Below the pieces are notes generated by a model that was not told where the DNA came from, did no database searches, and saw only the letters and a program-made list of their open reading frames with translations. This document shows positions 36,118-51,515 of a stretch of 64,000 nt of DNA, one piece after another. Position 1 is the first letter of the stretch, and every line of letters begins with the position of its first letter. The stretch spans positions 1,728,001 to 1,792,000 of the forward strand of contig CAXXYH010000003.1 in the NCBI GenBank assembly GCA_963677925.2. The letters run 5' to 3'. This DNA is from Spirochaetia bacterium. GTDB taxonomy: Bacteria; Spirochaetota; Spirochaetia; UBA9216. Position numbers and translations under genes: made by a program.

Positions 36118-36125
36118 AGAATGCC

Positions 36126-37448
36126 TCAGCGCTCAGCGAACTGCGGTAGAAACTCTTTATGAGCTTCAAGCATTTCATCAAATATTACTCTTGCCAGCTT
36201 ATCAGATGCGACAAGCGGATTTATAGCAAGGGCAAGAACTCCTGTGTTGTAATCTCCTGTCACAGCAGCTTCGGCAGCTGTCCGCTCAAAGGATTTAATC
36301 TGCTGTATAAGTCCCTTCACCGGCACCGGAAGTTCGCCTCTGACAGCAGTCTCGGGACCAGTGCCCGTGATTCGGCAGTTTATCTCGACAGCAGATTCAT
36401 AGGGAAGATCGCTGATAGCACCCCTGTTCATGGTGTTAACTGTCTGAATATCACCCTTATTATTATAAATGGAATTGATGAGGCTGCATGCTGCATCACT
36501 GTAGTAAGCCCCGCCGCGGTTCTCAAGCTGTGCCGGTTTGACATTAAGCGACGGGTCCCTGTAAAGCTCGAAAAGCTCGGTTTCCATAGCCTTTACCTTC
36601 TCGGCTCTTGTACCGTTATGACGATACTCTTCAAGGGCCTCTTCCACCATCTCGTCAGTTTTATAGTAGTAGCGGTGGTAGGGACAGGGCAGTATTTTCA
36701 GCCCCTTAATAAATTCCGGTTCCCATTCAATCGGAGGAATATTACTCATCGTAATTCGGCCCTTCGATTCTATTATGATATCAGGAATCTGCGCAGAGAT
36801 ATCTTCACCGTCAAGATAGGTTTTAAGGCCGAAAACCATGTGATTAAGGCCGGCAAAATCAACTTTCAGCCTTTCGATATCCACGCCCATAACGCCGGCC
36901 AGAGCCTTGTGAATACCTATCGGGACATTGCAGAGACCTACAACTCTTTTATGATCTGAATATCTAAGAAGGGCTTCGGTTACCATTCCGGCCGGATTAG
37001 AAAAATTCACAAGCCAGGCTTCCGGACATAATTCAACAATCTCATCGGCAATTTGAAGAATTACCGGGATGGTCCGGAGTCCAAGAAACAGGCCTCCGGC
37101 TCCGTTTGTCTCCTGCCCCAGAACACCGTGTGAAAGCGGAATTTTTTCATCCTTTATCCGGCCGTCCATTCCCCCTACCCTTATCTGGGTAGTTACAAAA
37201 TCGGCTCCCGGAAGCGCAGCCCGGCGATCAGTAGTAGTGATAATTTTCATGGGAACCCCGGCCTTATCGACCATCCGTTTTGCAAGCTCCCCCACTGTTT
37301 CAAGTTTCTCAAGGCCGCTTTCAATATCAACAAGCCACAATTCTTTTACGGGCAGTTCATCGTAGCGTTTGATAAAACCTTCTACCAGTTCAGGCGTATA
37401 GCTTGAACCGCCTCCAATTGTAACTATTTTTACAGCTTTATTTTTCAT
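36126..37448 (-). CDS. licH: GH4 6-phospho-beta-glucosidase (LicH/CelF-like)
   Basis: IGGGSSYTPEL, GQETNGAGG, NFSNP, GLCNVP, GLNH, PCPYHRYY, RGGAYYSDAA; GGAGG then ATG at 37448. Confidence 0.9.
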   Translation of the reverse strand: MKNKAVKIVTIGGGSSYTPELVEGFIKRYDELPVKELWLVDIESGLEKLETVGELAKRMVDKAGVPMKIITTTDRRAALPGADFVTTQIRVGGMDGRIKDEKIPLSHGVLGQETNGAGGLFLGLRTIPVILQIADEIVELCPEAWLVNFSNPAGMVTEALLRYSDHKRVVGLCNVPIGIHKALAGVMGVDIERLKVDFAGLNHMVFGLKTYLDGEDISAQIPDIIIESKGRITMSNIPPIEWEPEFIKGLKILPCPYHRYYYKTDEMVEEALEEYRHNGTRAEKVKAMETELFELYRDPSLNVKPAQLENRGGAYYSDAACSLINSIYNNKGDIQTVNTMNRGAISDLPYESAVEINCRITGTGPETAVRGELPVPVKGLIQQIKSFERTAAEAAVTGDYNTGVLALAINPLVASDKLARVIFDEMLEAHKEFLPQFAER

Positions 37449-37472
37449 GAATAATCCTCCGCTGCGGAAATG

Positions 37473-37525
37473 TAAAAATGTGACCGCACACATTTTTATC
37501 ATAACATAAATTTAAACTATGTCAA
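37473..37525 (-). promoter_or_regulatory. LacI-type operator and promoter for GH4-ROK
   Basis: TAAAAATGTG-ACCGCA-CACATTTTTA (37473-37498, central CG); TTGACA(37525)-N16-TATGAT with extended TG. Confidence 0.72.
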
Positions 37526-38530
37526 TGCAAGACATGAGCTTCGTACTATGAATTCAGAAGCAAGGATCACCTCATCAGGAACTGAGTTTTTACCGGAGAT
37601 AACCGCCATCATCATATCAACAGCAGCAACAGCAATCTTTTCCACAGGCTGCCTGACAGTAGTCAAGGAGGGAGTTATAAACGAAGAATACTGAAGATCA
37701 TCAAAACCGGCAACCGATAAATCCTCCGGCAGTTTAAGACCGGCATCATGAGCCGCCTTAATCATTCCCATAGCCATATAATCATTGGAACAGAACACTG
37801 CAGTAGGAGGATTTTCCCGAGTCATAAGCTCCGAATAGGCTCTGTAACCGCTCTCCAGAGACCAGTCACCGTAATATATCAGCTTTTCATCAGCAGGCTG
37901 TCCGGCGTCCTCAAGCTTCAGTCTGTACCCTTTCAGCCTGTCAGCTGCGTTTATTTCTTCTATATTGCCGCTGACGAAGCCTATCCGCTTGTGACCAAGC
38001 TCCAGAAGATGGGAGACAACACGGGCCGCACTTCCTGTATTATCAACATCAACAAAATTGAATTTCTTCCCCCTGCTTCTGCCCAGAACTACAGTAAAGG
38101 GTATATCATCACCTGAAAGTTTCTCGAGGAAAGGAGCCTCAAACGGGGGAGCAAAAACCATCAGCCCGTCAACCTTTCCCTCCTTATACAGTCCTGAATG
38201 ATCGCTAGCAGAGAGCTCATCATCATGAAGAGATCCCAGAAACAGACTGTAACCGTTTTGTTTGAGCTGTTTTTCAACGGAAAAAAGAAGTTCAATATAA
38301 AAAGGTGCAGTAAGAAGGTATTCTTTTTTCGGGAGAACTATTCCGATGTTATAGGTTTTTCTGTTATTGAGTGCCCTTGCAGCCGCGTTGGGATGGTAGC
38401 CAAGTTCCTCAATCGCCTTAAGGACCCGTTCCTCGGTTTCCTTTTTGACGTTGCCGCATTTATTGACGACTCTTGAAACCGTCATATATGAAACATTGGC
38501 TCTTTTTGCCACATCCTGCTGTGAAACCAC
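37517..38530 (-). CDS. LacI family transcriptional regulator
   Basis: DVAKRANVS..TVSRV.N...LGYHPNAAARAL; PEDLSVAGFDD, LTTVRQP. Confidence 0.95.
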   Translation of the reverse strand: MVSQQDVAKRANVSYMTVSRVVNKCGNVKKETEERVLKAIEELGYHPNAAARALNNRKTYNIGIVLPKKEYLLTAPFYIELLFSVEKQLKQNGYSLFLGSLHDDELSASDHSGLYKEGKVDGLMVFAPPFEAPFLEKLSGDDIPFTVVLGRSRGKKFNFVDVDNTGSAARVVSHLLELGHKRIGFVSGNIEEINAADRLKGYRLKLEDAGQPADEKLIYYGDWSLESGYRAYSELMTRENPPTAVFCSNDYMAMGMIKAAHDAGLKLPEDLSVAGFDDLQYSSFITPSLTTVRQPVEKIAVAAVDMMMAVISGKNSVPDEVILASEFIVRSSCLALT

Positions 38531-38549: not shown

Positions 38550-39308
38550 TTAAAGGTGATCTTTAGGAAAAATTATCTCTACTCCGGCCTCTTTGAAGAT
38601 GCCGATATACTCATCAGATATATTCCGGTCGGTAATCAGGTATTGAATATCTTCAACACCACAGTATTTAGACATCGCGATTTTACCGAATTTAGATGAA
38701 TCGGTAAGAATGAAGGTCTGAGGACTCCTTTTGATTATTACCGAGTTGATATCGGCGCGCATCATATCCTTTCCGGTAAAACCTGTGTTCTGCGCAAAGC
38801 CGTCAACACCAATAAATGCCTTGCTGAAGTTCAGATGCTTAAGACATTCCTTTACAAGGTTACCGACAACACACTCACTTTCCGGCTGATAGATTCCTCC
38901 GAGAAGAATAACTCTACCTTCGGAATTTTTTCCTATCTGTCTGGCTATGAAAGCATTCGATGTAATTATTGTAGTAGTCTTGCGCTGCTTGACTATTTCC
39001 TGAGCCAGAAGAGAGTTAATGGAACCCGATTCTATGAAGATGGTTTCCCCCTCTTCAACATAGGAAACAGCAGTCCGGGCAATGCTTAGCTTCTGTTCGT
39101 AATTTATACCCATCCGGTGGGATATATCATCTGTTTCATCAAGAACAGCACCGCCGTGAACCCTTTTGAGAAAGCCGTTGGATTCAAGAGATGTTAAATC
39201 CTGCCTTATAGTAGCGGGAGAGACATCAAGCCTTTCGGCAAGCTCATTAACAGCAGCTTTTTTTCCATCTGACATTATACTTAATATCTGTCTGTGTCGT
39301 TTATTCAT
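38550..39308 (-). CDS. yciT: DeoR family regulator, YciT-like
   Basis: TIRQDL..LE, DDISHRM..NY..K, ETIFIESGS, GGIYQ..SE..VG, FSKAFIGVDG...TGFTGKDMMR; matches my recollection of E. coli YciT. Confidence 0.75.
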   Translation of the reverse strand: MNKRHRQILSIMSDGKKAAVNELAERLDVSPATIRQDLTSLESNGFLKRVHGGAVLDETDDISHRMGINYEQKLSIARTAVSYVEEGETIFIESGSINSLLAQEIVKQRKTTTIITSNAFIARQIGKNSEGRVILLGGIYQPESECVVGNLVKECLKHLNFSKAFIGVDGFAQNTGFTGKDMMRADINSVIIKRSPQTFILTDSSKFGKIAMSKYCGVEDIQYLITDRNISDEYIGIFKEAGVEIIFPKDHL

Positions 39309-39310
39309 AA

Positions 39311-40270
39311 TTATTCCAGTGTTAACGCAGCTGCTCCCAGTAATCCGGCATTGTTTCCCAGCGCAGAAGGTCGGATTTCGATTTTATCATACATCATTTT
39401 ATTCACGAGTGACAAGAATTTATGCTCAATCTGATCCAGATAAACCTCGCCGCAATTTGTGAGCCCTCCGCCGATTATAAAGATTTCGGGATTGAGTATC
39501 TGAAAAAGGTTATACAGACCGACACCAACGGCATCAGCTGAATCGCCAAGAACCTTCTTGGAAAGTGCATCTCCTTCCTCAAGGCCCCTCCGCATGGTAA
39601 GACCGTCAAAATTATCTACATTTGAAAGGTCCACACCTATCGTTGATGTCTCTCCGGCTTCGAGATATTTACGGTATAAAGCTGGAAGATACTGTCCGCT
39701 TGAAAGCGACATCATACAGCCGTAGTTTCCGCAGGAACATTGAATATCGGAATGGGGATCAATTATAGTATGACCTACCTCACCTGCAGTACCGGTCATT
39801 CCCCGGATGAGTTTTTTATCAATAATAATTCCGCATCCGACACCGGTACTTACAGTTAGAAAGATCATATCCGAAAAACTTTTGCCCGCACCGAAGCGGA
39901 ATTCTCCATAGGCCTGAGCATTTGCATCATTATCAAGAATTACATGGGTACGGAATTTTCGGGCTACCCGCTCCCGAATCGGATAATTGTTAAAACATGC
40001 CCTGAAGTTACTTGAAGTTATTATAAGTCCCTTCTTGTAGTTCACATGGCCGGCCATGCAGATACCTATGCCGTGAAGCTCTTCATCTGCCACACCGTTG
40101 TTATCCATCAGGCCACGGATAAGGCTTATAACCTTATCCGCTATCCCGTCACAGTCCATGTCTTTGTGATCATATATTTTCAGTTTTTCAACAAGGGTGC
40201 CGTCTTCAAGGAAGAGTCCCGCTGACAGCTTTGTGCCCCCGAGGTCTACTCCGCACAGATATTTTTTCAT
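39311..40270 (-). CDS. ROK family sugar kinase (Zn-type) with atypical GCMM motif
   Basis: DLGGTK, DNDANA, STGVGCG, AGEVGH, CSCGNYGCMMSL; ATG at 40270. Confidence 0.88.
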   Translation of the reverse strand: MKKYLCGVDLGGTKLSAGLFLEDGTLVEKLKIYDHKDMDCDGIADKVISLIRGLMDNNGVADEELHGIGICMAGHVNYKKGLIITSSNFRACFNNYPIRERVARKFRTHVILDNDANAQAYGEFRFGAGKSFSDMIFLTVSTGVGCGIIIDKKLIRGMTGTAGEVGHTIIDPHSDIQCSCGNYGCMMSLSSGQYLPALYRKYLEAGETSTIGVDLSNVDNFDGLTMRRGLEEGDALSKKVLGDSADAVGVGLYNLFQILNPEIFIIGGGLTNCGEVYLDQIEHKFLSLVNKMMYDKIEIRPSALGNNAGLLGAAALTLE

Positions 40271-40289
40271 ACAGCCTTCCGGAAAATCA

Positions 40290-41261
40290 TTATACAGCTT
40301 CTCTCTTTCGCTTTCTGCTGTAGCTGTCAAGACAAAGAATGGTTACAACAACAATTCCCCTTATTACTTCCTGAATATAGGGGCTGATCCGGAGCATGTT
40401 CATACTGTTTTCCATAACTCCGAAAACAAGGTAACCGAGCATGGCAAGAGGAGCTCCGCCGACTCCGCCGGCCAGGGAGGTACCGCCTACAACTACCGCA
40501 CTAATTACAACAAGCGGTATCCGGTCTCCGTAGATTGAATGGCCGGTATTAAGTGTTGAGGAAAGCAGTACACCCGAAAAGGATGCCGCAGCACCACAGA
40601 TAACATAGGTTGCGGCCTGGATTTTTTTAACACTGATTCCGGAATATTCAGCAACCTCGAAATCACCTCCGATTGCATAGATATTGCGTCCAAACTGGGT
40701 ATACCGGAGAAGGAAGTGGGTAATTACAAATACAACAAGCATAATGACAATCGAATTCGGTATAAATCCGAAAATTGTTCCGTTACCAATCATCATAAAT
40801 TCATAGTTGTCAGGTGTGATAGGGTGGGCGTCTGTAAGCTGCTGTGCAACACCGGTTAAAACCATTCCCATACCGAGAGTGATTATAAACGGAGCACATT
40901 TCTGATACACGACCAGAAATCCGTTCACAGCTCCAATCAGAGCACCGACAATAACCGCAAGGACTATCGACAGCCAGATCGGAACACCGGCATTCATGAA
41001 CATAATAGAAACTATTCCGCCAAGGCAGAGAGTACCTCCGATAGAAAGGTCTATTCCCTCACCTATAATTACAAGCGTAATTCCGAAAGCAAGAACTATA
41101 TAGATTGATGCGGAATTAAGCAGATCAAGCAGGTTGTAGCTTGTAAAGAAATATGTGGGAAAAAAGAGCATCAGTATAAACATTGCCAGAATAGCCATTA
41201 CCGCTTTCTGCCTTGTAAGCTTCTTTAAAATTGTTTTACCTTTAGGATAATTATTCATCAC
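40290..41261 (-). CDS. Monosaccharide ABC transporter permease (RbsC family)
   Basis: GIDLSIG, PFIITLG, FGRNIYAIGG, AVVVGGTSLAGG. Confidence 0.92.
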   Translation of the reverse strand: MMNNYPKGKTILKKLTRQKAVMAILAMFILMLFFPTYFFTSYNLLDLLNSASIYIVLAFGITLVIIGEGIDLSIGGTLCLGGIVSIMFMNAGVPIWLSIVLAVIVGALIGAVNGFLVVYQKCAPFIITLGMGMVLTGVAQQLTDAHPITPDNYEFMMIGNGTIFGFIPNSIVIMLVVFVITHFLLRYTQFGRNIYAIGGDFEVAEYSGISVKKIQAATYVICGAAASFSGVLLSSTLNTGHSIYGDRIPLVVISAVVVGGTSLAGGVGGAPLAMLGYLVFGVMENSMNMLRISPYIQEVIRGIVVVTILCLDSYSRKRKREAV

Positions 41262-41269
41262 CGCGCCTC

Positions 41270-42277
41270 CTAGTGCTGCCTCTTGGTGTCAAGCCAGATG
41301 GCTACGACCAGAACAAGTCCTCTCATGACGTATTGCATGTAAACATCAACCCCCAGCAGGTTAAGACAGTTGCCAAGCAGAATTACAAGCAGCGTACCGA
41401 TTACAGTACGTATTACGCTTCCCTTACCGCCGAGCAGCGAGGTACCGCCAACTACTACCGCCATTATGGCCTGTGTTTCATAGCCTTTTCCCAGAGTGGG
41501 AGAAGCCTGAGTTACCCTTGAAAAGAGAATGATACCGCTTAAACCGGCCATAAACCCGTTGATGGTAAACATGCTGATGATTCCCTTTTTAACAGAAATA
41601 CCGGCAAGTCTTGCTGCGGTTTTGTTTCCACCGAGAAGATTGATTGTACGGCCGAGATAGGTTTTATTCTGAAAAATATAGAGAATTACAAAAACAAAGA
41701 TAAATATCAGAAATGATACCGAGAATATTCCGACCGTACCTGAACCGATAACAGTGAAGAGTGAATAATCAGCCTCCATATATGTCAGGTAGTGGGTTAC
41801 ACCTCCTGTATACAGCATTGCAAGTCCGCCGAAAACAACCATGGTTCCATAGGTGATAAACAGGGCTTCAGCCTGTGTGATAGCACCGCTCACCAGTATC
41901 AGCAGACTGTTGATAAAGCCGCACACCGCTCCGGCAATCAGCCCGATGATAAGAGCCGGAACCATTCCAAGCGGCTCGATAAGTGAGTGGGTGATGACAA
42001 CTACCAGAGGAATTGTTCCGGAAACTGATAGGTCAATAAACCCGCCTATAATTACAAAGGTCATTCCGAGGCAGACCATAATCAGAGGCCCGAACTGACG
42101 CATGATATTCGTCATATTGGCAACAGTCGCAAATTTTGGTTCAACGATTATAGTTACAATGGCCAGTACGGCAATAGCGAAAAGGACCATGTATTCCTTT
42201 GAGAACTCAATAATCGCCTTTCTGATTTTCGAATCAGCAACCGGAACTGCTTTTACTGGTGTATTATTTTCGCTCAT
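41270..42277 (-). CDS. Monosaccharide ABC transporter permease (RbsC family)
   Basis: GMTFVII..IDLSV, GGNKTAARLAGI, AVVVGGTSLLGGKG. Confidence 0.92.
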   Translation of the reverse strand: MSENNTPVKAVPVADSKIRKAIIEFSKEYMVLFAIAVLAIVTIIVEPKFATVANMTNIMRQFGPLIMVCLGMTFVIIGGFIDLSVSGTIPLVVVITHSLIEPLGMVPALIIGLIAGAVCGFINSLLILVSGAITQAEALFITYGTMVVFGGLAMLYTGGVTHYLTYMEADYSLFTVIGSGTVGIFSVSFLIFIFVFVILYIFQNKTYLGRTINLLGGNKTAARLAGISVKKGIISMFTINGFMAGLSGIILFSRVTQASPTLGKGYETQAIMAVVVGGTSLLGGKGSVIRTVIGTLLVILLGNCLNLLGVDVYMQYVMRGLVLVVAIWLDTKRQH

Positions 42278-43782
42278 GATTCCGTCCCTTTATCAATAAA
42301 CTCAAATGCTTTTTCCATTATTTCATGTGTTGACGCCTTTTCAGGATCAAATTCGCCCGTAATCCGGCCGTCACAGATTGTAAGCACACGGTTGCTCATA
42401 TTCAGAACCTCCGGCAGCTCCGAAGATATCAGTATTACAGAACCGCCCTTGCTTACAATATCCTTCATAAGCAGATAGATTTCATACTTCGCACCAACGT
42501 CAATACCCCTTGTCGGTTCATCCATTATCAGGATACGCGGTTCAAGTTCGAGCCAGCGGCCGACTATACATTTCTGCTGATTTCCGCCGGAAAGGCTTTC
42601 AGCCCTTGTTTTAGCCGACGGGGTTTTAATATTAAGAGCCTTAATCTGTCTTTCAGCTATTGCCTTCTCATCTCCCTTTTTAAGAAAGCCAAGCTTTGTC
42701 GTCATCCTGTCGAGACTCGCCATTGAGATATTTGACTCTACGCTGAAGGGGAGAATGAGGCCCTGCAGTTTCCGATCTTCAGGAACAAAGGATATTCCTG
42801 CAGCCTTGGCATCGGCAGGTTCCTTGATTTTTACAGGTTTTCCGTCAATCAGGATTTCATGGCCGAAGGTCCTGTCTGCACCGAAAATTGCCCGGACTAT
42901 CTCAGTCCTTCCTGCTCCTACAAGACCGACAAAGCCCAGTATTTCACCTTTTTTCAGCTTGAAGGATACATCCTTTAATTTCTTTGTATTTATTGAGCGT
43001 ACTTCCATGAGTGTATCACCGACATTTCTAGGACGCTCGGGAAATTCATTTTCAATTGACCGGCCGACCATTTTGGCAATCATTTCACCTCTGGTTATCT
43101 CTCCGATCGGTTTTGTATCGATGACCTTGCCGTCACGCATTACGGTGACCATGTCGCAGTAGTTGAATATTTCATCGAGTTTATGACTTATATAGATGAT
43201 AGATATTCCCTGTTCTTTGAGATGTGCAATAATCCTTGCCAGATGCTTCATTTCATCATCTGTAAGACTGCTGCTCGGTTCATCCATGATAATCAGTTTT
43301 GAGTCGAATGAAAGAGCCTTCGCTATCTCGACCATCTGTTTTTCAGAAACGCTCAAATCTCCAACAAGGGTATATGTATCAATTTTAGAACCTATACTGT
43401 CAAGAAGCTCACGTGCCTTTGCATGCGTGCCCTTCATACCTTTCAACTCTCTGAAACGGCCCAGAAAAACATTTTCTCCCACTGTCATCGTATTTACGAT
43501 ATTCAGTTCCTGATAGATGATACTCAGTCCCATTTCCATCGACTTATGGGGTGTTGTTGACTTGATATCTTTTCCGTCAAAAGTAATTGTGCCTGAATCT
43601 TTTACATGTACTCCTGATAAAATCTTCATCAGCGTAGATTTACCGGCACCGTTCTCCCCTACTATACCGTGAACCGTTCCCCGCCTGACATTAATGGAAA
43701 CATCATCAAGCGCCTTAACACCGGGAAAGGTTTTATTTATGTTTTCAACTGAAAGAATGTATTCCGGCATCTTATCATTCAT
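42274..43782 (-). CDS. Monosaccharide ABC transporter ATPase (RbsA/MglA family)
   Basis: Tandem NBDs: GENGAGKST, DEPSS, ISHKL, PEDRK, LSGGNQQK, DEPTRG; start could be 43791, 43782 or 43770. Confidence 0.93.
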   Translation of the reverse strand: MNDKMPEYILSVENINKTFPGVKALDDVSINVRRGTVHGIVGENGAGKSTLMKILSGVHVKDSGTITFDGKDIKSTTPHKSMEMGLSIIYQELNIVNTMTVGENVFLGRFRELKGMKGTHAKARELLDSIGSKIDTYTLVGDLSVSEKQMVEIAKALSFDSKLIIMDEPSSSLTDDEMKHLARIIAHLKEQGISIIYISHKLDEIFNYCDMVTVMRDGKVIDTKPIGEITRGEMIAKMVGRSIENEFPERPRNVGDTLMEVRSINTKKLKDVSFKLKKGEILGFVGLVGAGRTEIVRAIFGADRTFGHEILIDGKPVKIKEPADAKAAGISFVPEDRKLQGLILPFSVESNISMASLDRMTTKLGFLKKGDEKAIAERQIKALNIKTPSAKTRAESLSGGNQQKCIVGRWLELEPRILIMDEPTRGIDVGAKYEIYLLMKDIVSKGGSVILISSELPEVLNMSNRVLTICDGRITGEFDPEKASTHEIMEKAFEFIDKGTES

Positions 43783-43834
43783 TTCTCTCAACCTCTTTCT
43801 TTGTAAGCTTTTTCTTTTTTAGATAGATGAGGGA

Positions 43835-43930
43835 GCAATTTCAAAAACTTTTAGAGTCTCACTTCCTGCGTTTTGAAATTGCCTCTATGAATAAGCCCGT
43901 TTAAACATAATCATGTAAAAACGAGCTTAT
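43835..43930 (-). terminator. Two tandem hairpins after the substrate-binding protein gene
   Basis: GCAATTTCAAAA...TTTTGAAATTGC (43835-43882) and ATAAGCCCGTTT...AAACGAGCTTAT (43891-43930). Confidence 0.55.
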
Positions 43931-43954
43931 TTCATTTCTTTTACCAGTTAAATC

Positions 43955-44905
43955 CTACCACTCAGGAGGAGTGAAAGTATCGATATTTGAAAGGTCTACT
44001 ATATCAAGCGGAATGAAGTTTACAACTTTGATTGATTTGCCGTCCAGAAGATCTCTGGCTGTCTGCATTTCTATCATTGCCATATTTTCAAAGTTCTGCA
44101 TAATGGTGACACTCTGCCGGCCGCTTCTAACCTGGTCAAAACCTGCCCTGTTGCCGTCTACACCTACGATAAATTTTCCGGTCATACCTGCTGCGTCAAG
44201 TGCATTGAGTATACCTGTTGCACCTCCGTCCCAGTGACAGAATATACCTTCAATTTCTTCACCGTATTTAACAATCATGTCTTCCATTATCATCATAGCC
44301 TGGTTTGTATCCCACTGCTGACATGCTTTGTAATCAATAACTTCAAGTTTTGAACCAGCAATTTTCTTGTTGAAACCATCATGTCTCTTGATCTGAGCGT
44401 CATGTCCTGACTGACCGCCTATCTCAACAATCTTTGCACCGTTGGGGAATTTGTTCAGGAATGCCTGACCTGCAGCTTCACCAGCCATAAGGTCGTTAAC
44501 GCCTACGAAGAAATCACGCGCCATGTCAGCACTTTCTGCAGGAACGTCTGATGAGAACATACCTACGATAACACCGGCTTTCTTGGCTTTAATAAGAGCG
44601 GGAATAACCGCGTTGATATCATTGGGGTTAACAAATATAGCTGCGAATTTCTGAGCTACAGCATTATTGATCAGCTGGGTTTCAACCTGAGCATCACCCT
44701 TACCGTCAAGAATTGTTACATCAAAATTATATTCAGCTGCATGTTTTTCAAACATTTTTGCTGCAAAAGCCTGTGACGGATTTGCAATTTCACCCGGAAT
44801 AAAGGCAACTTTTTCCATTCCGCCGGCAGCTTCCTGCTGACCGCCTGCAAATGCCATAGTACCAACCATTAATACTATGCAAATCAGTACAATTACTCTT
44901 TTCAT
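43955..44905 (-). CDS. Sugar ABC transporter substrate-binding protein (RbsB-like)
   Basis: Signal ...MAFAGGQQE; NP..AF, RHDGF, VGVDG; type I periplasmic fold pattern. Confidence 0.9.
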   Translation of the reverse strand: MKRVIVLICIVLMVGTMAFAGGQQEAAGGMEKVAFIPGEIANPSQAFAAKMFEKHAAEYNFDVTILDGKGDAQVETQLINNAVAQKFAAIFVNPNDINAVIPALIKAKKAGVIVGMFSSDVPAESADMARDFFVGVNDLMAGEAAGQAFLNKFPNGAKIVEIGGQSGHDAQIKRHDGFNKKIAGSKLEVIDYKACQQWDTNQAMMIMEDMIVKYGEEIEGIFCHWDGGATGILNALDAAGMTGKFIVGVDGNRAGFDQVRSGRQSVTIMQNFENMAMIEMQTARDLLDGKSIKVVNFIPLDIVDLSNIDTFTPPEW

Positions 44906-45001
44906 TTAAGTCCTCCATTAAAAAAACAAATTCTTAATTAAAATCTAAACCAACCTAACTCTCTGTTGAAAAAAAGATGCAAACCTCCTTAATACTGATT
45001 T

Positions 45002-45478
45002 TCAGTTTTTATCTGTATCCTTACGGACAAATTCCCTTAATACTGACACAACAAGTTCATGGTCTTCCACATCAGGCAGACCGCTGACTGTTACAGACCC
45101 GATAGTCCCGGTCTCTTTTATTATGATTGGAAATGATCCGCCGAATGGTGCATATTCACCTCCGTCAAGAAAGTAAAGTTCTTCGAGTGATTTTTTCTTT
45201 TCAAGCAGCAGCTCTTTCATATAAAGGGAACTTTTACCGAAGCGGTCCGCGATTCTGCTTTTCCGGATTATCCAGCTGTCGTTATCAGCTGAAGTCCCTT
45301 CAATCGCGTAATGAAATATCTGCTGTCCATGCTTTCTTATATCAACTGTAACTACTTGATCCTTGAGACGGGCTACCTCTACAAGCCTAAGTCCAAGCTC
45401 AAGAGCCATTGAATTCGAAAAAGAACTGAATTGAAGCTCTGAATGCTCTTCGTCTCTGGCTTTCAATATGCTACTCAT
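45002..45478 (-). CDS. UPF0303 / HbpS-GlcG 'haem-degrading' domain protein
   Basis: EELQFSSF, GTSADNDSWI.RK, SSLY, GGSFPI, VSGLPD..DH. Confidence 0.85.
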   Translation of the reverse strand: MSSILKARDEEHSELQFSSFSNSMALELGLRLVEVARLKDQVVTVDIRKHGQQIFHYAIEGTSADNDSWIIRKSRIADRFGKSSLYMKELLLEKKKSLEELYFLDGGEYAPFGGSFPIIIKETGTIGSVTVSGLPDVEDHELVVSVLREFVRKDTDKN

Positions 45479-45503
45479 TTTCCATCTTTCGCCTTAAATT
45501 AAT

Positions 45504-45567
45504 CTTTCGTATGATAGTATTTATTTATCGTATGTGATACGATACACCATCAAATTACAGTTGTCAA
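45504..45567 (-). promoter_or_regulatory. Promoter and operators of the UPF0303-ABC-ROK-DeoR operon
   Basis: TTGACA(45567)-N17-TATCGT; palindrome TATCGTAT-GTG-ATACGATA (45526-45544); CTTTCGTATGATAG (45504-45517) resembles the GRE operator. Confidence 0.62.
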
Positions 45568-45645
45568 ATTTTATTTTCAGGGATTCACCCTTTTAATTGC
45601 CAAAATCAGAGTGTTCTGGTAAAAATATGCAGAAAGGATTAACAG

Positions 45646-46566
45646 ATGAACGGAACAGTTTTTGATTTTAAAAGATTCGCAGTGCATGACGGGCCTGGGA
45701 TAAGAACCACCCTATTCCTAAAAGGCTGCCCGCTGGGCTGTCTCTGGTGCCACAACCCCGAAGGTATTAATATCAAACTCAGTCTCTGGTTCTTTGAACG
45801 TAAGTGCATAGCATGTAAATCCTGTGTTGAAACCTGCAGCTTCGGAGCGCTTACAGCAGCATTACCCGGCGAGCCTTTTATAAAAATTGATCATGACAAA
45901 TGCACACGCTGCGGCGACTGTGTCGCAGAATGCCCTACAAAGGCGCTCAGCTTCGACGGATACTATATGTCGGTTGATGAGGCCGTAGAGGAACTGCTTA
46001 AAGACAGGGAATTTTATGAAACTTCAGGAGGCGGTATTACAATATCCGGCGGAGATCCCGTTTTTCAGCCTGATTTCAGCAAAGCGGTATTAAGCGCATG
46101 CAAAGAGCGAGGTGTCCACACTGCAATTGAATCATCCATGTTTACAAAGTCTGAAATTCTTTTAAGTTTTACCGAATGCACCGATCTATTCATAGTCGAT
46201 ATAAAACTGATTGATAACGAGATGCATAAAAAGTACACCGGAACCGATAATCGCATTATTCTTGATAACTTCAAACAGCTGTCTGCAGTCCATTCCGAAA
46301 TACTTGTTCGCATTCCCTTGATACCCGGAATAACAGCAACACCCGGGAATGTTGAAGCAGTTGCCTCCTTTGTATCGGAGACTGCGCCAGGAACGTCACT
46401 TGAATTGATCAATTTCAATCCTCTTGCGGAAAGCAAGTACCATACAATGGACAGGGATTATGAAGTGCTTATGGGACTTGAACCCCTTACCGAAGGGGAA
46501 CTGGATGAGCTGTATTCAATACTTGAGAAATACGAACTTAACCCCGTCAGAGAAAAGAAGATTTAA
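45646..46566 (+). CDS. Glycyl-radical enzyme activating enzyme (radical SAM with 2x[4Fe-4S] insert)
   Basis: HDGPGIRT, CPLGCLWCHNPE, CIACKSCVETC / CTRCGDCVAECP, GGITISGGD, RIPLIPG. Confidence 0.95.
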   Translation: MNGTVFDFKRFAVHDGPGIRTTLFLKGCPLGCLWCHNPEGINIKLSLWFFERKCIACKSCVETCSFGALTAALPGEPFIKIDHDKCTRCGDCVAECPTKALSFDGYYMSVDEAVEELLKDREFYETSGGGITISGGDPVFQPDFSKAVLSACKERGVHTAIESSMFTKSEILLSFTECTDLFIVDIKLIDNEMHKKYTGTDNRIILDNFKQLSAVHSEILVRIPLIPGITATPGNVEAVASFVSETAPGTSLELINFNPLAESKYHTMDRDYEVLMGLEPLTEGELDELYSILEKYELNPVREKKI

Positions 46567-46579
46567 GGCATATTAAAAT

Positions 46580-46618
46580 AAAAAAGGCTGAGCAGAACAA
46601 ACTGACTCAGCCTTTTTT
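46580..46618. terminator. Bidirectional intrinsic terminator between activase and GRE
   Basis: AAAAAAGGCTGAG...CTCAGCCTTTTTT. Confidence 0.88.
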
Positions 46619-46631
46619 ATCTGCAGATTAT

Positions 46632-49019
46632 TTACATTGTCTGCTCTGTCCTTGAAATAATATCATTCTGGGTTTCTGTTGAAAGGTTAGTGAAAAAAGC
46701 TGAGTATCCGGCAACCCTGACTACAAGATCGTTATACTCCTCAGGTTTCTCCTGAGCCTCAACAAGGGTTTCCTTATCAACAATATTGTACTGTATGTGC
46801 CAGCCCTTGAGATCATCAAAGAATGTATGCAGCATTGAAATCAGTTTTTCCCGGTTTGCATCTGAATCAAGAACTGCAGGTGTGAATTTCTGGTTGAGCA
46901 GTACTCCGCCCAGGATTCGGTCAGTCGGAAGCTTTCCGATGCTCTGAAGAACTGCTGTCGGTCCGCATCTGTCCGCACCGGCTGAGGGAGAGGCTCCTTC
47001 AGCAAGCGGAGTCCAGGCTTTTCTTCCGTCAGGAGTAGCCGGCACTACCGCACCTGAGGGAACATTACTTGAAATACTGGAAGTACCTCCGTAATAGCGG
47101 CAGCCGATTGCAGGGCTTCCCTTTCTGATAGTGCTGTATTTTTCAACCTCATCAAGGTATTTATCGTAGGCATCACCAAGCAGATTATCTACGTAATCTT
47201 CATCATTTCCGAACTTCGGGGCAAAGTTAAGAAGAATCTGTCTCAGCTTCTCACCTTCCGGCCCTGCGAAATCGTTTTCAATGGCATTCATGAGCTCTGA
47301 GGGGCTTATGCGCTTTTCTTCAAAAACAAGCTTCTTTATTGCAGCAAGAGAATCTCCAAGGTTGGCTATTCCAACCTGAAGACCAGATTCAAAATCATAC
47401 TTGCTTCCGCCTTCATGGATCGTAAGCCCGCGGTCAAGACAGTCATCGGTGAAGGCTGAACAGATAATATCGGGTGCTTCATCCCGCAGTACTACATCAA
47501 TTGCTGAATCGATTGCAACACCGGCCTTTGCAAAAAATCTCACCTGCTTTTCCCAGGCATCCATCACCTGGCTGAAATCGGTAAAATCGGTAAATTTTCC
47601 GGTACCGCTGCAGAAAGTTTTTCCGCTTACGGGATCTTTTCCATCATTAAGAGCCGCAAGGAAAACCCTCATAAAATTGAGAAAGTGCTTTCCGGTACAT
47701 CTGTATCCCCATTTACCGGGCACCGCTGTCTCAATGCATCCGATAGCCGAGTAATCCCAGGCATCTTCGGGTTCAACGCCGAGGTCAAGGAATGATGGGA
47801 TTACTATTGAGTCATTATTGAAAGCAGGCATACCGAAGCCCAGCCGGATTACCCTGATGCATTCACGCAGAAACTCGTTGTCAATTCCCGGATGAAAGCG
47901 GACTGAAAGATTCGGCTGGGTCAGTTTTGTCTCGCCTACTGATTTAAGAATCAGAAAGGATAAGTCGTTTACGGCATCTGAACCGTCCTGAAGCTGACCT
48001 CCTATCGTAACATTCTGATAAAGCGGTCCGCCGGCTGAAAACCGGGTATGCGACCAGGAGCGGATCTTTTTGATACTGACAAGTTTGAGCCAGAGGTTTT
48101 CAAGAAGTTCCATCACCTCATCATCATTTATCAGGCCCTTATCCGCATCCTCTTTATAGAAGGGATACAGATACTGATCCATCCTTCCAAGTGACAGAGA
48201 ATGCCCGTTGCTCTCTATCTGAAGAACAAGCTGCACAAAATATGTCAGCTGAAGAGCCTGGTAGAAGGTCTCAGGTTTACCTGCAGATATGCTGCGGCAG
48301 TTCTTTTCTATTTTTTCAAGCTCTGCTTTCCGCTGCTCACCGGTTTCGGTTCGGCTCATTTCCAGTGCAAGGTCTGCAAAACGGAGTATAAAATCCTGCA
48401 TGGCTTCAAGGCTCATTATAACCGACTGGTAAAACAGCCGCTTTTTAATGTCCTCGCCTGATATAAAATCCGAGGTTTCAAGTTTATCTGAAGCTTTTTT
48501 CTTAAACCACTCCAGGCCGTTTTCAAGAATGAGTCTGAAATGGGCGGCTATGTGCGCATCACCGGAGGTCAAATTTCCTTCAGCCCGAATTATTCCTGTT
48601 TCGTGAATTTCCAGAAGTTCCTCTGCCATCATTGCTCGGCCCTTATCAAGGGTGGTTTTATTTTCCCAGTATCTGCAGAGTTCAAGAAGCTCTTTTTTTA
48701 TTTCATCTGAGGGGTAGAAGGCATCACCGCTTCTTTTCTCAAACTCATCGATTTCTTTTTCAATCCACTCAACAGCATATTCGGGGAAAATCGGAGCAGC
48801 ATAAATAGCAGAAGAATGGTTTCCAACTATCAGATCTTCCGGTTCTATCCTGATACTCATGTTTTCCAGAGTATCCCGGAGAGCATAAGCTCTTTTTATG
48901 ATTACCGGTTTGTCCTCATGCTTTTTATAGGCTTCAGTATAAAACCGAGCCCTTTCAATACACACTGTAGGTTTAGTTTTGAGAATTCTTTCCCGATAGC
49001 TGCTGATTCTGCCAGTCAT
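46632..49019 (-). CDS. ybiW: Glycyl radical enzyme, YbiW/PflF (PFL2) clade
   Basis: RVAGYSAF glycyl loop; single-Cys IGCIETAVPGKWGYRCTG; GNLTSGDAH; QIESNGHS; LYQNVTIGGQ; ILGGVLLNQK. These match my recollection of E. coli YbiW signatures. Confidence 0.82.
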   Translation of the reverse strand: MTGRISSYRERILKTKPTVCIERARFYTEAYKKHEDKPVIIKRAYALRDTLENMSIRIEPEDLIVGNHSSAIYAAPIFPEYAVEWIEKEIDEFEKRSGDAFYPSDEIKKELLELCRYWENKTTLDKGRAMMAEELLEIHETGIIRAEGNLTSGDAHIAAHFRLILENGLEWFKKKASDKLETSDFISGEDIKKRLFYQSVIMSLEAMQDFILRFADLALEMSRTETGEQRKAELEKIEKNCRSISAGKPETFYQALQLTYFVQLVLQIESNGHSLSLGRMDQYLYPFYKEDADKGLINDDEVMELLENLWLKLVSIKKIRSWSHTRFSAGGPLYQNVTIGGQLQDGSDAVNDLSFLILKSVGETKLTQPNLSVRFHPGIDNEFLRECIRVIRLGFGMPAFNNDSIVIPSFLDLGVEPEDAWDYSAIGCIETAVPGKWGYRCTGKHFLNFMRVFLAALNDGKDPVSGKTFCSGTGKFTDFTDFSQVMDAWEKQVRFFAKAGVAIDSAIDVVLRDEAPDIICSAFTDDCLDRGLTIHEGGSKYDFESGLQVGIANLGDSLAAIKKLVFEEKRISPSELMNAIENDFAGPEGEKLRQILLNFAPKFGNDEDYVDNLLGDAYDKYLDEVEKYSTIRKGSPAIGCRYYGGTSSISSNVPSGAVVPATPDGRKAWTPLAEGASPSAGADRCGPTAVLQSIGKLPTDRILGGVLLNQKFTPAVLDSDANREKLISMLHTFFDDLKGWHIQYNIVDKETLVEAQEKPEEYNDLVVRVAGYSAFFTNLSTETQNDIISRTEQTM

Positions 49020-49044
49020 AATAGCTCCATATATTTTTGTATTT

Positions 49045-49073
49045 ATAGTATTTACTTTTCATATGAAAGTCAA
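49045..49073 (-). promoter_or_regulatory. GRE promoter with palindromic operator in the spacer
   Basis: TTGACT-N17-TACTAT with TTTCATATGAAA (49057-49068) between the boxes. Confidence 0.75.
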
Positions 49074-49207
49074 TAAATCATAATTGCAAATTCTAAATAT
49101 TAGCCTTTTTATATACATTTATCCTGCTCTTTTACAATTTTCAGGCCAGGACTGCTTCAAAACAGGGCAATATGAATTGCTTTTATAACATTACAGAATT
49201 ATTAAGA

Positions 49208-49249
49208 TTGACAAGCCTCTTTCACTGCCTTATCATCTTTATACGAAAG
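49208..49249 (+). promoter_or_regulatory. Promoter of the AroE-like/SDR operon with an operator-like site
   Basis: TTGACA-N17-TATCAT followed directly by CTTTATACGAAAG. Confidence 0.68.
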
Positions 49250-49307
49250 TTATTTATTATCATTTAAACTTTATATATTTTCTTTCAAATAAAACAGGAG
49301 AGCAGTT

Positions 49308-50171
49308 ATGAAAGAACAGAATTATCTGGATAATCTGGTCGGCGTATTCGGCCATCCGGCAGCAGAAAACCCCGGAGTAGTCATACAGGAGGCTGCATTT
49401 GAAGCTATGGGCCTTGAACGCTGGCGCTTTCTTACAATTGATGTTGATCCAGGAAAACTTGCAGATGCCATAGCAGGACTGAAAGCAATGAAAATGAAGG
49501 GCATAAACTGCACAATCCCTCATAAAATTGAAGTTCTTAAATATCTTGATGAAATATCTCCAAGCGCAGAGCTTATCGGTGCAGTGAACATGATAGTAAA
49601 CAAGAACGGAAGACTTTTCGGTGAAAACACCGACGGCAAGGGCTTCATGGAATCACTAAGAAACTCCGGAATCTCTCCTGAAAACAAGAAGGTTTTAATT
49701 CTTGGCGCAGGCGGCGCAGCCCGCGCAATATCAGTCGAACTGGCCTTTGCCGGAGCAGAGCGGATAACCATTGTTAATATCCCCAGGGATGAAGATCTTG
49801 CAGTATCACTGATAGAAACATTAAAGGCCAACACAAAGGTAAACGCGGAATATGTGCCATGGACTGAAAATTTCTCAGTTCCGGAAGATACGGAAATTCT
49901 CATTAATGCGACGCCAATCGGACTGTATCCGGATGTTGATGAAAAACCGCCTATCAACTATGATTCAATCCTGCCCGGAATGTATGTTCAGGATGTAATT
50001 CCAAACCCTGCGTACACACCCTTTCTTGACGAAGCCAAAAAACGGGGTGCCGGATGGAGCACCGGCATGGGAATGCTTATAAATCAGGCAGCTATAAATA
50101 TAAAGATGTGGACCGGCAAAGACCCTGACAAGGAAGTTATGACAAAGGCTTTTCAGGAAGTCATAGGCTGA
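49308..50171 (+). CDS. Shikimate/quinate dehydrogenase-like (AroE/YdiB superfamily) oxidoreductase
   Basis: NCTIPHK, GAVN, NTDG, LGAGGAARA, INATPIG, GMLINQA; HSxSP replaced by AENPG. Confidence 0.85.
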   Translation: MKEQNYLDNLVGVFGHPAAENPGVVIQEAAFEAMGLERWRFLTIDVDPGKLADAIAGLKAMKMKGINCTIPHKIEVLKYLDEISPSAELIGAVNMIVNKNGRLFGENTDGKGFMESLRNSGISPENKKVLILGAGGAARAISVELAFAGAERITIVNIPRDEDLAVSLIETLKANTKVNAEYVPWTENFSVPEDTEILINATPIGLYPDVDEKPPINYDSILPGMYVQDVIPNPAYTPFLDEAKKRGAGWSTGMGMLINQAAINIKMWTGKDPDKEVMTKAFQEVIG

Positions 50172-50189
50172 GTCCGTAAAGGATACAAC

Positions 50190-51056
50190 TTGAAAAGGAT
50201 TTTAGTAACAGGCAGCAGAGGATTCGTAGGCAGCAGGTTTATCCGTGCATACGGTGATATTTTCAGCATTACCGGGACATCATCTGTGGAACTGGATCTT
50301 AAAAACTACAGTGCAGTGCTTGAGACCTTTAAAAACGTAAAGCCTGATATTGTACTGCACACATCAGCAATCGCCCAGACCGCATACTGCAACGATAATC
50401 CTGAACTCTGCCATGCAGCCAATGTAGATGCTTCACTGAATATAGCCAGGGCATCTGATATCTCAGGAGCAAGATTCGTTTTCCTGAGCACCGAGCAGGT
50501 TTTTAACGGCAACAGCAGTCCCGGTCCCTACAGTGAAACAGATAAAGCAGAGCCTGACACCGTATACGGACAGAACAAGCTTGAAGCCGAAGGACAGATT
50601 CAGGCAGTCTGCAGTGACAGCCTTATACTCCGGCTTACCTGGATGTTCGGTGTACCGGAAAACGGAAGCCCCGTATCCGATAACATCCTATGGGGGACAC
50701 TGAAAAACATCATAAAAGGAAAACCTTTCAAGGTTCCGGACAATGAATACAGGGGTCTCACATATATCGGGGATCTAATAAGGGAATTCAGCAGGATTCT
50801 GGAACTTCCCGCCGGTATTTATCACACAGGCTCAGAAAACAGCCTCAGCAGATATGAAACGGTCCGGCTGATCTTCAATGAAGCAGGCCTCGGGGATAGA
50901 TTTGACGAGCTTGTAATCAGGGATACTGAGAAGTACAGGGATGCAGCCAGGGATATAAGACTTGATACATCAAGGCTGAAATCAGCCGGCATTACATTTC
51001 CTGAAAGCACTGAAGCACTGGCCGCCTGCATCAGAGACTACAGCCTTACCTTCTGA
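50190..51056 (+). CDS. RmlD-like extended SDR oxidoreductase
   Basis: TGSRGFVG, STEQVFNG, YGQNK (YxxxK), ILRLTW; TTG start. Confidence 0.82.
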   Translation: MKRILVTGSRGFVGSRFIRAYGDIFSITGTSSVELDLKNYSAVLETFKNVKPDIVLHTSAIAQTAYCNDNPELCHAANVDASLNIARASDISGARFVFLSTEQVFNGNSSPGPYSETDKAEPDTVYGQNKLEAEGQIQAVCSDSLILRLTWMFGVPENGSPVSDNILWGTLKNIIKGKPFKVPDNEYRGLTYIGDLIREFSRILELPAGIYHTGSENSLSRYETVRLIFNEAGLGDRFDELVIRDTEKYRDAARDIRLDTSRLKSAGITFPESTEALAACIRDYSLTF

Positions 51057-51092
51057 TTGATTGGATCGGCGTTCCCGGTATATTATCTGTTT

Positions 51093-51515
51093 ATGGTAAG
51101 CCCCGATCTTCTTGAAAAAGATATCGAAAAAAGCGGAGTATTCTCATTCTCCAGATCAGCCGGTCCCGGCGGTCAGAACGTCAACAAGGTCAACAGCCGG
51201 GTAACTCTTACTGTTCCGGTTGAAGAGATCTACTCACTCAGTATTGAAGAGAAAGACCGTCTCAGAAGAAAACTGGCAGGAAGAATAAACACAAAGGATG
51301 AGCTGTTCATAAGCGTCCAGCAGGAACGCTCGCAGCTTCGAAACCGTGAAATAGCAGTAGAAAACCTGACCCTGCTGATCTGCGACAGCCTTCGAAGAAA
51401 CAAGAAGCGAAAAAAAACAAAACCCTCACGCGCCGCTGTCGAAGCCCGAATAGCCGACAAAAAACGGCGCGCCGGCATTAAAAAGAACCGTAACTTCAGC
51501 AACGGAGATTATTAA
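51093..51515 (+). CDS. arfB: Alternative ribosome-rescue peptidyl-tRNA hydrolase ArfB
   Basis: SRSAGPGGQNVNK, RSQLRN, basic tail RKKTKPSRAA...KK.R; ATG at 51093. Confidence 0.93.
   Translation: MVSPDLLEKDIEKSGVFSFSRSAGPGGQNVNKVNSRVTLTVPVEEIYSLSIEEKDRLRRKLAGRINTKDELFISVQQERSQLRNREIAVENLTLLICDSLRRNKKRKKTKPSRAAVEARIADKKRRAGIKKNRNFSNGDY

Follow-up and report, generated by a model that had tools for sequence, protein, structure and literature searches.

We propose that positions 38,550 to 51,056 of the 64,000-nucleotide stretch of Spirochaetia bacterium contig CAXXYH010000003.1 analysed here (the window) encode a form of anhydroglycolysis that operates without a phosphotransferase system (PTS) in an anaerobic spirochaete, a reading to which we assign a probability of roughly 0.7. 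The locus carries a glycyl radical enzyme (GRE) of the YbiW clade, its activase, a DeoR-family regulator related to E. coli YciT, a ribose-type ABC importer, a ROK-family kinase, a UPF0303 protein and two reductases, and its gene content gives good support to a scheme in which ABC import and ROK phosphorylation would replace the PTS. The importer, of the CUT2 type, would bring in a 1,5-anhydrohexitol, namely 1,5-anhydroglucitol, 1,5-anhydromannitol or both, or else the corresponding keto sugar 1,5-anhydrofructose, and the kinase, which has lost the acidic residue that probably holds the sugar 1-OH in ROK kinases, would phosphorylate O6 with ATP. The activase would install the glycyl radical on the GRE, which is predicted to open the C1-O5 ring bond and release 1-deoxyfructose 6-phosphate, and an aldolase encoded elsewhere would split this product into glyceraldehyde 3-phosphate and hydroxyacetone. 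The two co-regulated reductases, one like 5-ketofructose reductase (KFR) and one like RmlD, most likely would reduce or interconvert ring keto and hydroxy forms and thereby feed the kinase, for example by converting anhydrofructose to anhydromannitol or anhydroglucitol. The locus-encoded YciT-type repressor would shut three promoters through CTTTCRTAYGAAAG boxes until an inducer appears.

Anhydroglycolysis was reportedly described in 2024 in E. coli (Ma et al., JACS), with YbiW/YbiY and FsaA as one set of enzymes and PflD/PflC with FrwBCD, PtsA, FsaB and GldA as the other; uptake there is said to be attributed to the PTS, and the title of that report is said to call the pathway 'widespread'. 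Growth of E. coli on 1,5-anhydro sugars by this route is recorded in the accessible parts of two reviews (PMC13450708, PMC12441222). All genes that a first-pass annotation had named in the window were recovered in the open reading frame (ORF) list and in Pfam and NCBIfam scans. The minus strand carries, after one promoter-like element, the genes for UPF0303, the sugar-binding protein (SBP), the ATPase, two permeases, ROK and DeoR; the activase (+) and GRE (-) genes converge, and the genes of the two reductases diverge from the GRE gene. A search for related loci matched 590 stretches, of which 578 were confirmed and the best 80 (52-98% identity) were kept, and their ORFs were clustered by all-against-all BLASTP. 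Many of these loci end at contig ends, so the counts of gene families are lower bounds. The activase was present in 63/80 related loci, ROK in 47/80 and DeoR in 46/80, the last two across phyla. Lower counts were obtained for the CUT2 ATPase (10/80), GFO/IDH/MocA oxidoreductases (9/80), Fsa-type aldolase (8/80), GMC oxidoreductases (5/80), the RmlD-like reductase (5/80), the CUT1 binding protein (4/80) and PTS EIIC (4/80). The locus labelled L001, on the chromosome of a Spirochaetia metagenome-assembled genome (MAG), is colinear with the window at 91.4% nucleotide identity.

The GRE (P0001, 46632-49019, minus strand; Pfam PFL-like 678.9 bits and Gly_radical 114.6 bits) was compared with solved structures, and it matched YbiW (8id7) with 948 bits, glycerol dehydratase with 612.6 bits and PflD with 528.7 bits. 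Its identity to E. coli K-12 YbiW was 432/802 (54%). A quick IQ-TREE phylogeny (LG+G4), rooted on PflD alone, was built from 84 rows. E. coli YbiW and PflD made up two of them, and the other 82 were GRE ORFs from the window and the 80 loci, of which those shorter than 700 aa were dropped; three loci gave no GRE ORF. The window GRE and E. coli YbiW fell in one 50-row clade (SH-aLRT 98), nested in a 76-row clade (SH-aLRT 100) that left PflD and two other GRE clades outside. The YbiW-clade assignment made from the letters alone was thus borne out by scores, identity and tree, and NCBIfam placed the protein only in the broad PFL2/glycerol dehydratase subfamily TIGR01774, with no match to a YbiW equivalog model. 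In the cysteine loop GCIE, C428 and E430 aligned with Cys441 and Glu443 of YbiW, which are described in the accessible part of PMC13450708 as the thiyl-radical cysteine and as the residue that hydrogen-bonds the C2 hydroxyl of 1,5-anhydroglucitol 6-phosphate, respectively. The radical glycine G771, in RVAGYS, aligned with the E. coli YbiW motif. The radical SAM activase (45646-46566, plus strand) scored 323 bits with TIGR02494 (cut-off 174), contained Pfam Radical_SAM and Fer4 and showed 35% identity to E. coli YbiY by tblastn. The predicted activity is of the YbiW type, in which the GRE would convert 1,5-anhydroglucitol 6-phosphate to 1-deoxyfructose 6-phosphate.

The window has one GRE, and a second GRE was observed in seven related loci (L003 16141-18510, L005 3040-5472, L011 5090-7501, L045 10-2382, L049 18152-20521, L068 4880-7315 and L070 1856-4249). 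Five of the seven form a clade outside the YbiW clade, with about 41-43% identity to E. coli PflD by tblastn, and have an activase each or share one; the other two belong to yet another clade. These seven loci may handle two anhydro sugars.

The ROK kinase gene (39311-40270, minus strand; Pfam ROK 204.5 bits) was listed as an ORF reaching 40330 from a TTG, and an ATG at 40270 fits the 319-aa homologues. The Pfam ROK match spanned residues 26-338 of the 339-aa ORF, and no helix-turn-helix family was matched. The protein contains the N-terminal ATP motif VDLGGTK, the ExGH motif GEVGH and the zinc cysteines, and its zinc motif CSCGNYGCMM ends in GCMM, so that the full motif with a terminal Glu is not present. 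The closest solved relatives, glucokinases 3vgk (170 bits) and 2qm1 (159 bits), have GCWE and GCLE at this site. Met replaced the terminal Glu in 118/120 closest homologues (the others had one Ile and one Phe) and in 44/50 ROK ORFs of the related loci (one had Ile, and five lacked the zinc motif). The available text of PMC2742894 gives the family motif as GHx9-11CxCGx2G(C/H)xE and counts its last Glu (E588 in GNE) among five sugar-binding residues, and that of PMC10031466 lists five corresponding residues in NagK, the fifth of which, D187, engages the 1'-OH. If D187 is the equivalent of the GCxE Glu, the change from Glu to Met makes the residue that binds the anomeric hydroxyl hydrophobic, and a hydrophobic residue is what a kinase would need for a 1,5-anhydro (1-deoxy) pyranose, which has no 1-OH. 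The enzyme is predicted to be a 1,5-anhydrohexitol 6-kinase. Its gene adjoins the GRE gene in 42/80 loci (directly downstream in 35 and directly upstream in 7), and the tight co-conservation of the GCxM kinase with the GRE that had been expected was found in this adjacency as well as in the Met counts. No assayed member of the GCxM family was found in our literature search.

The importer comprises two permeases (40290-41261 and 41270-42277; both Pfam BPD_transp_2), an ATPase with two ATP-binding domains (42274-43791; Pfam ABC_tran in two stretches) and a periplasmic or lipoprotein-type SBP (43955-44905; Pfam Peripla_BP_4, 166.4 bits), all on the minus strand. The top NCBIfam matches of the permeases were ribose and arabinose permeases, below the cut-off. 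Copies of the permeases with 57-65% identity adjoin the GRE in L010, L045 and L049, and ATPase copies with 65-75% identity occur in L010, L045, L049, L065, L068, L070 and L080. SBP homologues with 39-67% identity adjoin the GRE in L010, L045, L049, L052, L057, L065, L068, L070 and L080; the best solved matches of the SBP, ribose-binding proteins, reached at most 85 bits, and this difference fits one orthologous transporter that would travel with the GRE. The transporter-bearing loci belong to Bacillota (L010, L068 and L070), Planctomycetota (L049) and, in several cases, Spirochaetota, and L010 has the same parts as the window, namely SBP, ATPase, two permeases, DeoR, activase, GRE and ROK. The suggested link of an ABC importer to the GRE therefore recurs, as CUT2 orthologues, in several phyla (about 10/80 loci). 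Two inverted repeats (43890-43931, with 19-nt arms, 84% complementary, and a 4-nt loop; 43835-43882, with perfect 12-nt arms) lie within the 163-bp gap after the SBP gene and before the ATPase gene; they may form stem-loops between the cistrons, which would increase the amount of SBP relative to the membrane components. The UPF0303/HbpS-like protein (45002-45478, minus strand; Pfam HbpS-like; NCBIfam NF002696 169.8 bits, cut-off 146) had yeast YBR137W (4clc) as its best match in the Protein Data Bank (PDB).

Over 230 aa, the regulator (38550-39308, minus strand; Pfam HTH_DeoR and DeoRC) and E. coli YciT were 46% identical (E=1e-70), and YciT (NF040887) was its best NCBIfam model (238.9 bits, below the cut-off of 450). 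Related operator sites had been claimed at three promoters of the locus, and three sites related to the palindrome CTTTCRTAYGAAAG were located there. Putative operator 1 (CTTTCGTATGATAG, 45504-45517, one mismatch to the search pattern CTTTCRTATGAAAG) lies downstream of a promoter-like element at 45567-45539(-), TTGACA-17-TATCGT, of the UPF0303-ABC-ROK-DeoR operon. Operator 2 (TTTTCATATGAAAG, 49056-49069, one mismatch) lies inside a promoter-like element at 49073-49045(-) upstream of the GRE, and L001 carries this box too, at 37 bp upstream from the GRE gene. The weaker operator 3 (minus strand CTTTCGTATAAAGA, 49236-49249) has 3 mismatches to the 14-mer and an exact 10-mer CTTTCRTATR, and it abuts the -10 of the promoter-like element at 49208-49236(+), TTGACA-17-TATCAT, which is the best in the locus (11/12) and precedes the AroE-like operon. 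For the pattern CTTTCRTATR, which was chosen post hoc, the window had 5 occurrences where 0.57 were expected. When up to 3 mismatches were allowed, the 14-mer was not enriched in the window (19 against 15 expected) or in the E. coli region L081 (4 against 2.9), and the strict matches and their positions alone carry weight.

Since the motif was derived from the window, the other loci provide the fair test. The CTTTCRTAYGAAAG box with at most one mismatch was found 20 times in the 80 loci (1.31 Mb), once each in 20 loci, whereas 100 shuffles gave 0.74 on average and never more than 4; the L001 box is not independent of the window. Of the 20 boxes, 19 fall between genes, and 18 are followed downstream within 300 bp by a gene for a GRE, activase, ROK, DeoR or RmlD-like protein, in loci of Spirochaetota, Bacteroidota and Bacillota. 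In E. coli K-12, the ybiY-fsaA spacer contains CTTTCGAATGAAAG at 35 bp upstream of ybiY, and boxes with two mismatches precede ybiV and ybiU, so that the three intergenic gaps of the ybiU-ybiV-ybiW-ybiY-fsaA region (L081) hold boxes at 9079-9092, 10099-10112 and 13547-13560. According to the available parts of two preprints (bioRxiv 10.1101/2021.06.10.447994; 10.1101/2025.05.13.653802), ChIP-exo detected YciT at ybiUVWY and fsaA, and a reporter study found that YciT represses ybiYW from a site that overlaps the promoter. The E. coli palindromes supply a sequence for the operator that these published binding data imply. The identification of the regulator as YciT-like was upheld by its 46% identity and by the conserved box (20/80 loci and the E. 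coli spacer); together with the boxes in the window and the published YciT data, these findings point to a cis-encoded YciT regulon as the predicted nature of the window locus.

No PTS or FsaA gene had been noticed in the locus, and none was detected there or in the whole 64-kb window. With E. coli FsaA, FsaB, GldA, PtsA, FrwB/C/D and YbiV as queries, tblastn gave no match in the window at E<=1e-3, and no TAL_FSA or PTS Pfam family occurred among its 55 ORFs. Absence of Fsa is also the rule in other ROK-type loci: when 68 neighbouring ORFs of other loci were annotated, none in a ROK-type locus proved to be an aldolase. The loci with Fsa or PTS were all from Bacillota and belonged to a 26-row sister clade. 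Because the Fsa search covers the 64-kb window only, the absence is not readable as a new downstream route. The sole aldolase found in the window, a DhnA-type class I enzyme (55822-56631; 239.8 bits, just below the ADH-synthase subfamily cut-off of 241), was considered as the missing aldolase and set aside, being outside the Fsa family and part of a separate kinase-dehydrogenase-ABC cluster. This cluster (55822-63796, minus strand) also encodes an FGGY (xylulokinase-like) kinase, a zinc alcohol dehydrogenase and an ABC transporter with a Bmp/PnrA-type binding protein.

The first-pass annotation had further pointed to two segments near the active site in which the GRE appeared to depart from E. 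coli YbiW. The E. coli motifs given there were right: in the alignments, E. coli YbiW has RSGSHSKASAGS and CTGMSF where the window GRE has RSWSHTRFSAGG and CTGKHF. The first segment was rejected as a sign of novelty: RSWSHT[RKQ][FY]SAG[GS] is the usual form in all parts of the clade, the exception being RSGSHSKASAGS of E. coli, and the segment is therefore uninformative on this locus. The second segment marks a distinct spirochaete subclade (9 tree rows, SH-aLRT 99) with a coupled switch at five positions; L007 also carries CTGKHF, and among the 80 loci all of this 'KH' type are from Spirochaetota. The 120 closest protein clusters comprised 94 KH, 12 MH and 14 MS sequences, that is at least 94 KH clusters at 90% identity, and KH is common in metagenomes. 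The switch was read from an alignment of 196 YbiW-clade sequences, of which 120 were protein hits and 76 came from the loci, the window and E. coli YbiW; some sequences may be in both sets, and 8 rows from other clades were omitted. Just five positions split KH (n=103) from MS (n=81, E. coli included), with no overlap at 444, 445, 500 and 535: K in KH and M in MS at 444, H and S at 445, G and T/S/C/A at 500, H and K at 535, and D (also N/E) and S at 748. In E. coli numbering, the window GRE differs from YbiW by M457K, S458H, S515G, K550H and S763D. The MH sequences (n=12) stand between the two types, having M at 444, H at 445, G at 500, K at 535 and N/D at 748. M444K and K535H were fully coupled (103/103 KH compared with 0/93 others), and the gain of Lys at 444 with its loss at 535 looks like a lysine moved within one pocket. 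G443, K444 and H445 align at and just past D447 of glycerol dehydratase (K444 one residue after it), which is presumably a glycerol ligand. S328 aligns with glycerol dehydratase F333, a position that corresponds to the substrate-binding Ser334 of HypD in the accessible part of PMC7077986. The term 'active-site proximal' thus appears reasonable for the CTGKHF segment. Of the suggestion that substrate or downstream route may be new, the switch itself is real and a changed substrate may follow from it; the absence of Fsa from the 64-kb window does not bear out a new route.

The AroE-family reductase (49308-50171, plus strand) passed the NCBIfam aroE model TIGR00507 (220.7, cut-off 200.2), and its best PDB match was the 5-ketofructose reductase 7cok, with 246.7 bits compared with at most 186.5 for true shikimate dehydrogenases. 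In terms of sugar stereochemistry, 5-ketofructose in its pyranose form would be a 1,5-anhydrofructose that bears one more hydroxyl, and fructopyranose would likewise be related to 1,5-anhydromannitol, so that reduction of 5-ketofructose to fructose would parallel reduction of anhydrofructose to anhydromannitol. The likeness to KFR and this parallel lead us to predict that the AroE-like enzyme reduces a ring keto sugar of the 1,5-anhydrofructose type. The available text of PMC7954740 reports that KFR reduces 5-ketofructose to fructose with NADPH and that a Clostridium homologue was inactive on 5-ketofructose; membership in the KFR family therefore does not fix the substrate. A copy with 70% identity lies divergent from activase-GRE-ROK in L045, and the conserved synteny that had been envisaged for this gene was limited to L001 and L045 among the 80 loci. 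The RmlD-family short-chain reductase (50190-51056, plus strand; Pfam RmlD_sub_bind 141.4 bits) scored 142.1 with NCBIfam rmlD TIGR01214, below the cut-off of 224, had 9gpi as its best PDB match (185.4 bits), and had no other rhamnose-pathway gene beside it in the Pfam scan. Copies occurred in L003, L005, L007 and L011 at 48-54% identity, so that an RmlD-like protein of at least 48% identity was present in 5/9 KH loci (these four and L001) compared with 0/71 others; this link may reflect shared descent, since all are spirochaetes.

Other ring-sugar oxidoreductases were observed beside the GRE. GFO/IDH/MocA genes were present in L006, L011, L020, L033, L034, L036, L041, L045 and L057, with best matches to 4h3v and to 6a3f, which is presumably levoglucosan dehydrogenase (its database name is only 'putative dehydrogenase'); the GFO-family 1,5-anhydrofructose reductase 2glx stood lower in the list. 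GMC genes, most like the large subunits of FAD glucose and fructose dehydrogenases, were present in L004, L006, L011, L035 and L057. These GFO and GMC enzymes are candidates for anhydro-sugar interconversion, and ring-sugar redox chemistry around a predicted anhydro-sugar lyase is the apparent recurring theme. In seven Bacteroidales loci (L014, L016, L017, L018, L019, L024 and L029), the GRE-ROK pair adjoins glycogen genes upstream of the GRE (GH57, amylo-alpha-1,6-glucosidase and GT4/GT5 glucan synthase-like); these are close relatives and represent the synteny of one lineage. 1,5-Anhydrofructose is a product of glucan lyase acting on glycogen or starch.

Several results weigh against PTS-independent anhydroglycolysis as the function of the locus. 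CUT2 ABC genes accompany the GRE in just about 10/80 loci, a CUT1 ABC system is present in four others, and the annotated ORFs of most Bacteroidota loci include no transporter. UPF0303 had been placed in the same conserved system, but in the 80 related loci it was present only in the near-identical L001 and is not co-conserved with the GRE. No Fsa/Tal-family aldolase and no GldA is encoded within the 64-kb window. The equivalence of NagK D187 and the GCxE Glu was drawn from parallel lists of five residues rather than from a superposition. At the five coupled positions the GRE also departs from all 81 MS sequences, E. coli YbiW among them, and one of these changes removes a Lys that is invariant in the MS set; its substrate may therefore not be 1,5-anhydroglucitol 6-phosphate. 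This last result leads to an alternative with the same chemistry and another substrate, which we consider unlikely. The KH enzyme (K444, H445, G500, H535 and D748) would be a neofunctionalised YbiW paralogue acting on another phosphorylated anhydro or deoxy sugar, such as the manno or another epimer, or on one with the phosphate placed differently, and the RmlD-like and KFR-like enzymes would make its substrate out of a ring keto sugar, for instance 1,5-anhydrofructose. The clean five-position split of 103 KH from 81 MS sequences, the complete M444K/K535H coupling, the place of 444 next to the residue aligned with D447, S328 at the HypD Ser334 position and the restriction of RmlD-like genes to KH loci agree with such a change, and the stereochemistry of 5-ketofructose reductase would correspond to a manno product. 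However, the KH loci are all from Spirochaetota, so that the RmlD-like link may be shared ancestry; a relocated Lys could leave the substrate unchanged; and the KFR-like gene also accompanies an MS-type GRE in L045. The KH loci L005 and L011 keep the same GCxM kinase and YciT-like regulator as MS loci, and in L011 an exact YciT box lies upstream of the second, PflD-like GRE and not of the KH GRE. A PflD-like GRE is also present in L003, L005 and L011, which weakens the idea that the KH enzyme has taken over the manno substrate.

It is very unlikely, in our estimation, that the ABC transporter and the kinase handle an ordinary sugar and the GRE just clears 1,5-anhydroglucitol 6-phosphate as metabolite repair. 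This compound is described as a toxic side product of glucose-phosphorylating enzymes in the accessible part of PMC6347702, and the SBP and kinase belong to the ribose-binding and glucokinase families. Yet the kinase subfamily lacks the sugar-binding Glu in 118/120 members, its gene adjoins the GRE in an operon-like arrangement in 42/80 loci, which argues for a dedicated substrate, and the whole gene set stands under one YciT-type operator; moreover, E. coli grows on these sugars by the same route, as stated in the available text of PMC13450708 and PMC12441222. That the GRE is a dehydratase of the diol/glycerol type and that ABC, ROK and reductase genes are adjacent by chance has hardly any likelihood. 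The NCBIfam result, with TIGR01774 as the only match and no YbiW equivalog, would suit such an enzyme, but the GRE is far closer to YbiW than to glycerol or diol dehydratase, ROK (47/80) and DeoR (46/80) genes accompany it across phyla, and a shared operator occurs at three promoters of the locus. We retain PTS-independent anhydroglycolysis as the preferred reading. A more ambitious joint proposal is offered tentatively, as something we doubt more than we believe. It holds that the GCxM kinases are a new and widespread family of 1,5-anhydrohexitol 6-kinases defined by loss of the Glu for the anomeric hydroxyl, that KH enzymes form a YbiW branch of distinct function in which the move of a catalytic-site lysine from 535 to 444 would change the anhydro-sugar phosphate that is opened, and that the KFR-like and RmlD-like enzymes would form a front end bringing 1,5-anhydrofructose into radical glycolysis without the PTS.

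The surroundings of the locus were also surveyed. A three-gene group at 29059-32547 encodes an FeFe hydrogenase large subunit, a Nuo51-type flavoprotein and a 2Fe-2S thioredoxin-like ferredoxin, and a corrinoid methyltransferase set occupies 11900-16843 (RACo-type activator, CobW-like protein, URO-D-like methyltransferase and B12-binding protein); these two sets indicate that the host is a fermentative anaerobe. Directly downstream of the DeoR gene, on the same strand after a 19-bp gap, 35218-38530 (minus strand) encodes a LacI regulator, a GH4 glycosidase and a second ROK protein without the zinc motif. Homologues of the GH4 protein also occur in L069 and L070, and those of the LacI protein in L008 and L034. 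This group may form an operon of its own or a glycoside-processing module linked to the locus. An ArfB-type peptidyl-tRNA hydrolase gene (51057-51515, plus strand) starts one base past the RmlD-like stop and may be co-transcribed with the two reductases, with no functional link apparent. In L001 (12400-17750, compared with 41270-46566 in the window), short ORFs stand in place of five genes that are intact in the window (those of the activase, UPF0303, SBP, ATPase and first permease), and the fragments look like frameshift errors of MAG assembly rather than biology.

These findings define, in Spirochaetota, Bacteroidota, Planctomycetota and part of Bacillota, a core different from that of E. 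coli, which consists of the GRE, its activase, the special ROK and a YciT-type repressor. GCxM provides a sequence marker for the kinase family, the cross-phylum operator offers a means of locating the regulon in further genomes, and the solved YbiW structure makes it possible to examine whether the five-residue switch bears on substrate specificity. Anhydrofructose-type sugars are suggested as substrates for sediment and gut anaerobes without a PTS. No description of a kinase-dependent variant of anhydroglycolysis was found in our literature search, outside which the primary report of Ma et al. (2024) lies.

Compared with known systems, the window kinase has the same ROK fold, DxGxT-type motif, ExGH and CxCGxxGC as the ROK glucokinases (S. 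griseus GlkA 3vgk; 2qm1), NanK/GNE and NagK, whereas it and the GRE-linked subfamily have Met for the terminal Glu. The KFR-like protein matches 5-ketofructose reductase (7cok; Tatumella KFR, in the accessible part of PMC7954740) over its full length, including the N-terminal A-D/E-N-P segment; it sits in an anaerobic GRE locus, and the known KFR serves the use of 5-ketofructose by acetic acid bacteria. The regulator shares with the E. coli YciT regulon a 46% identical regulator type and a palindromic box at promoters, but it scores below the NCBIfam YciT cut-off (238.9 compared with 450), and its gene lies inside the locus, in contrast to yciT, which is about 480 kb from ybiW in E. coli. With E. 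coli anhydroglycolysis as a whole, the window locus has in common the YbiW-clade GRE, the Cys-x-Glu loop, the glycyl radical motif, a dedicated activase, and the YciT-type regulator with the palindromic box of the ybiY-fsaA spacer. It differs in its five-position KH signature, in the additional two reductases and UPF0303 gene, and in having a CUT2 ABC importer and a GCxM ROK kinase in a window with no PTS, Fsa, GldA or YbiV homologue.

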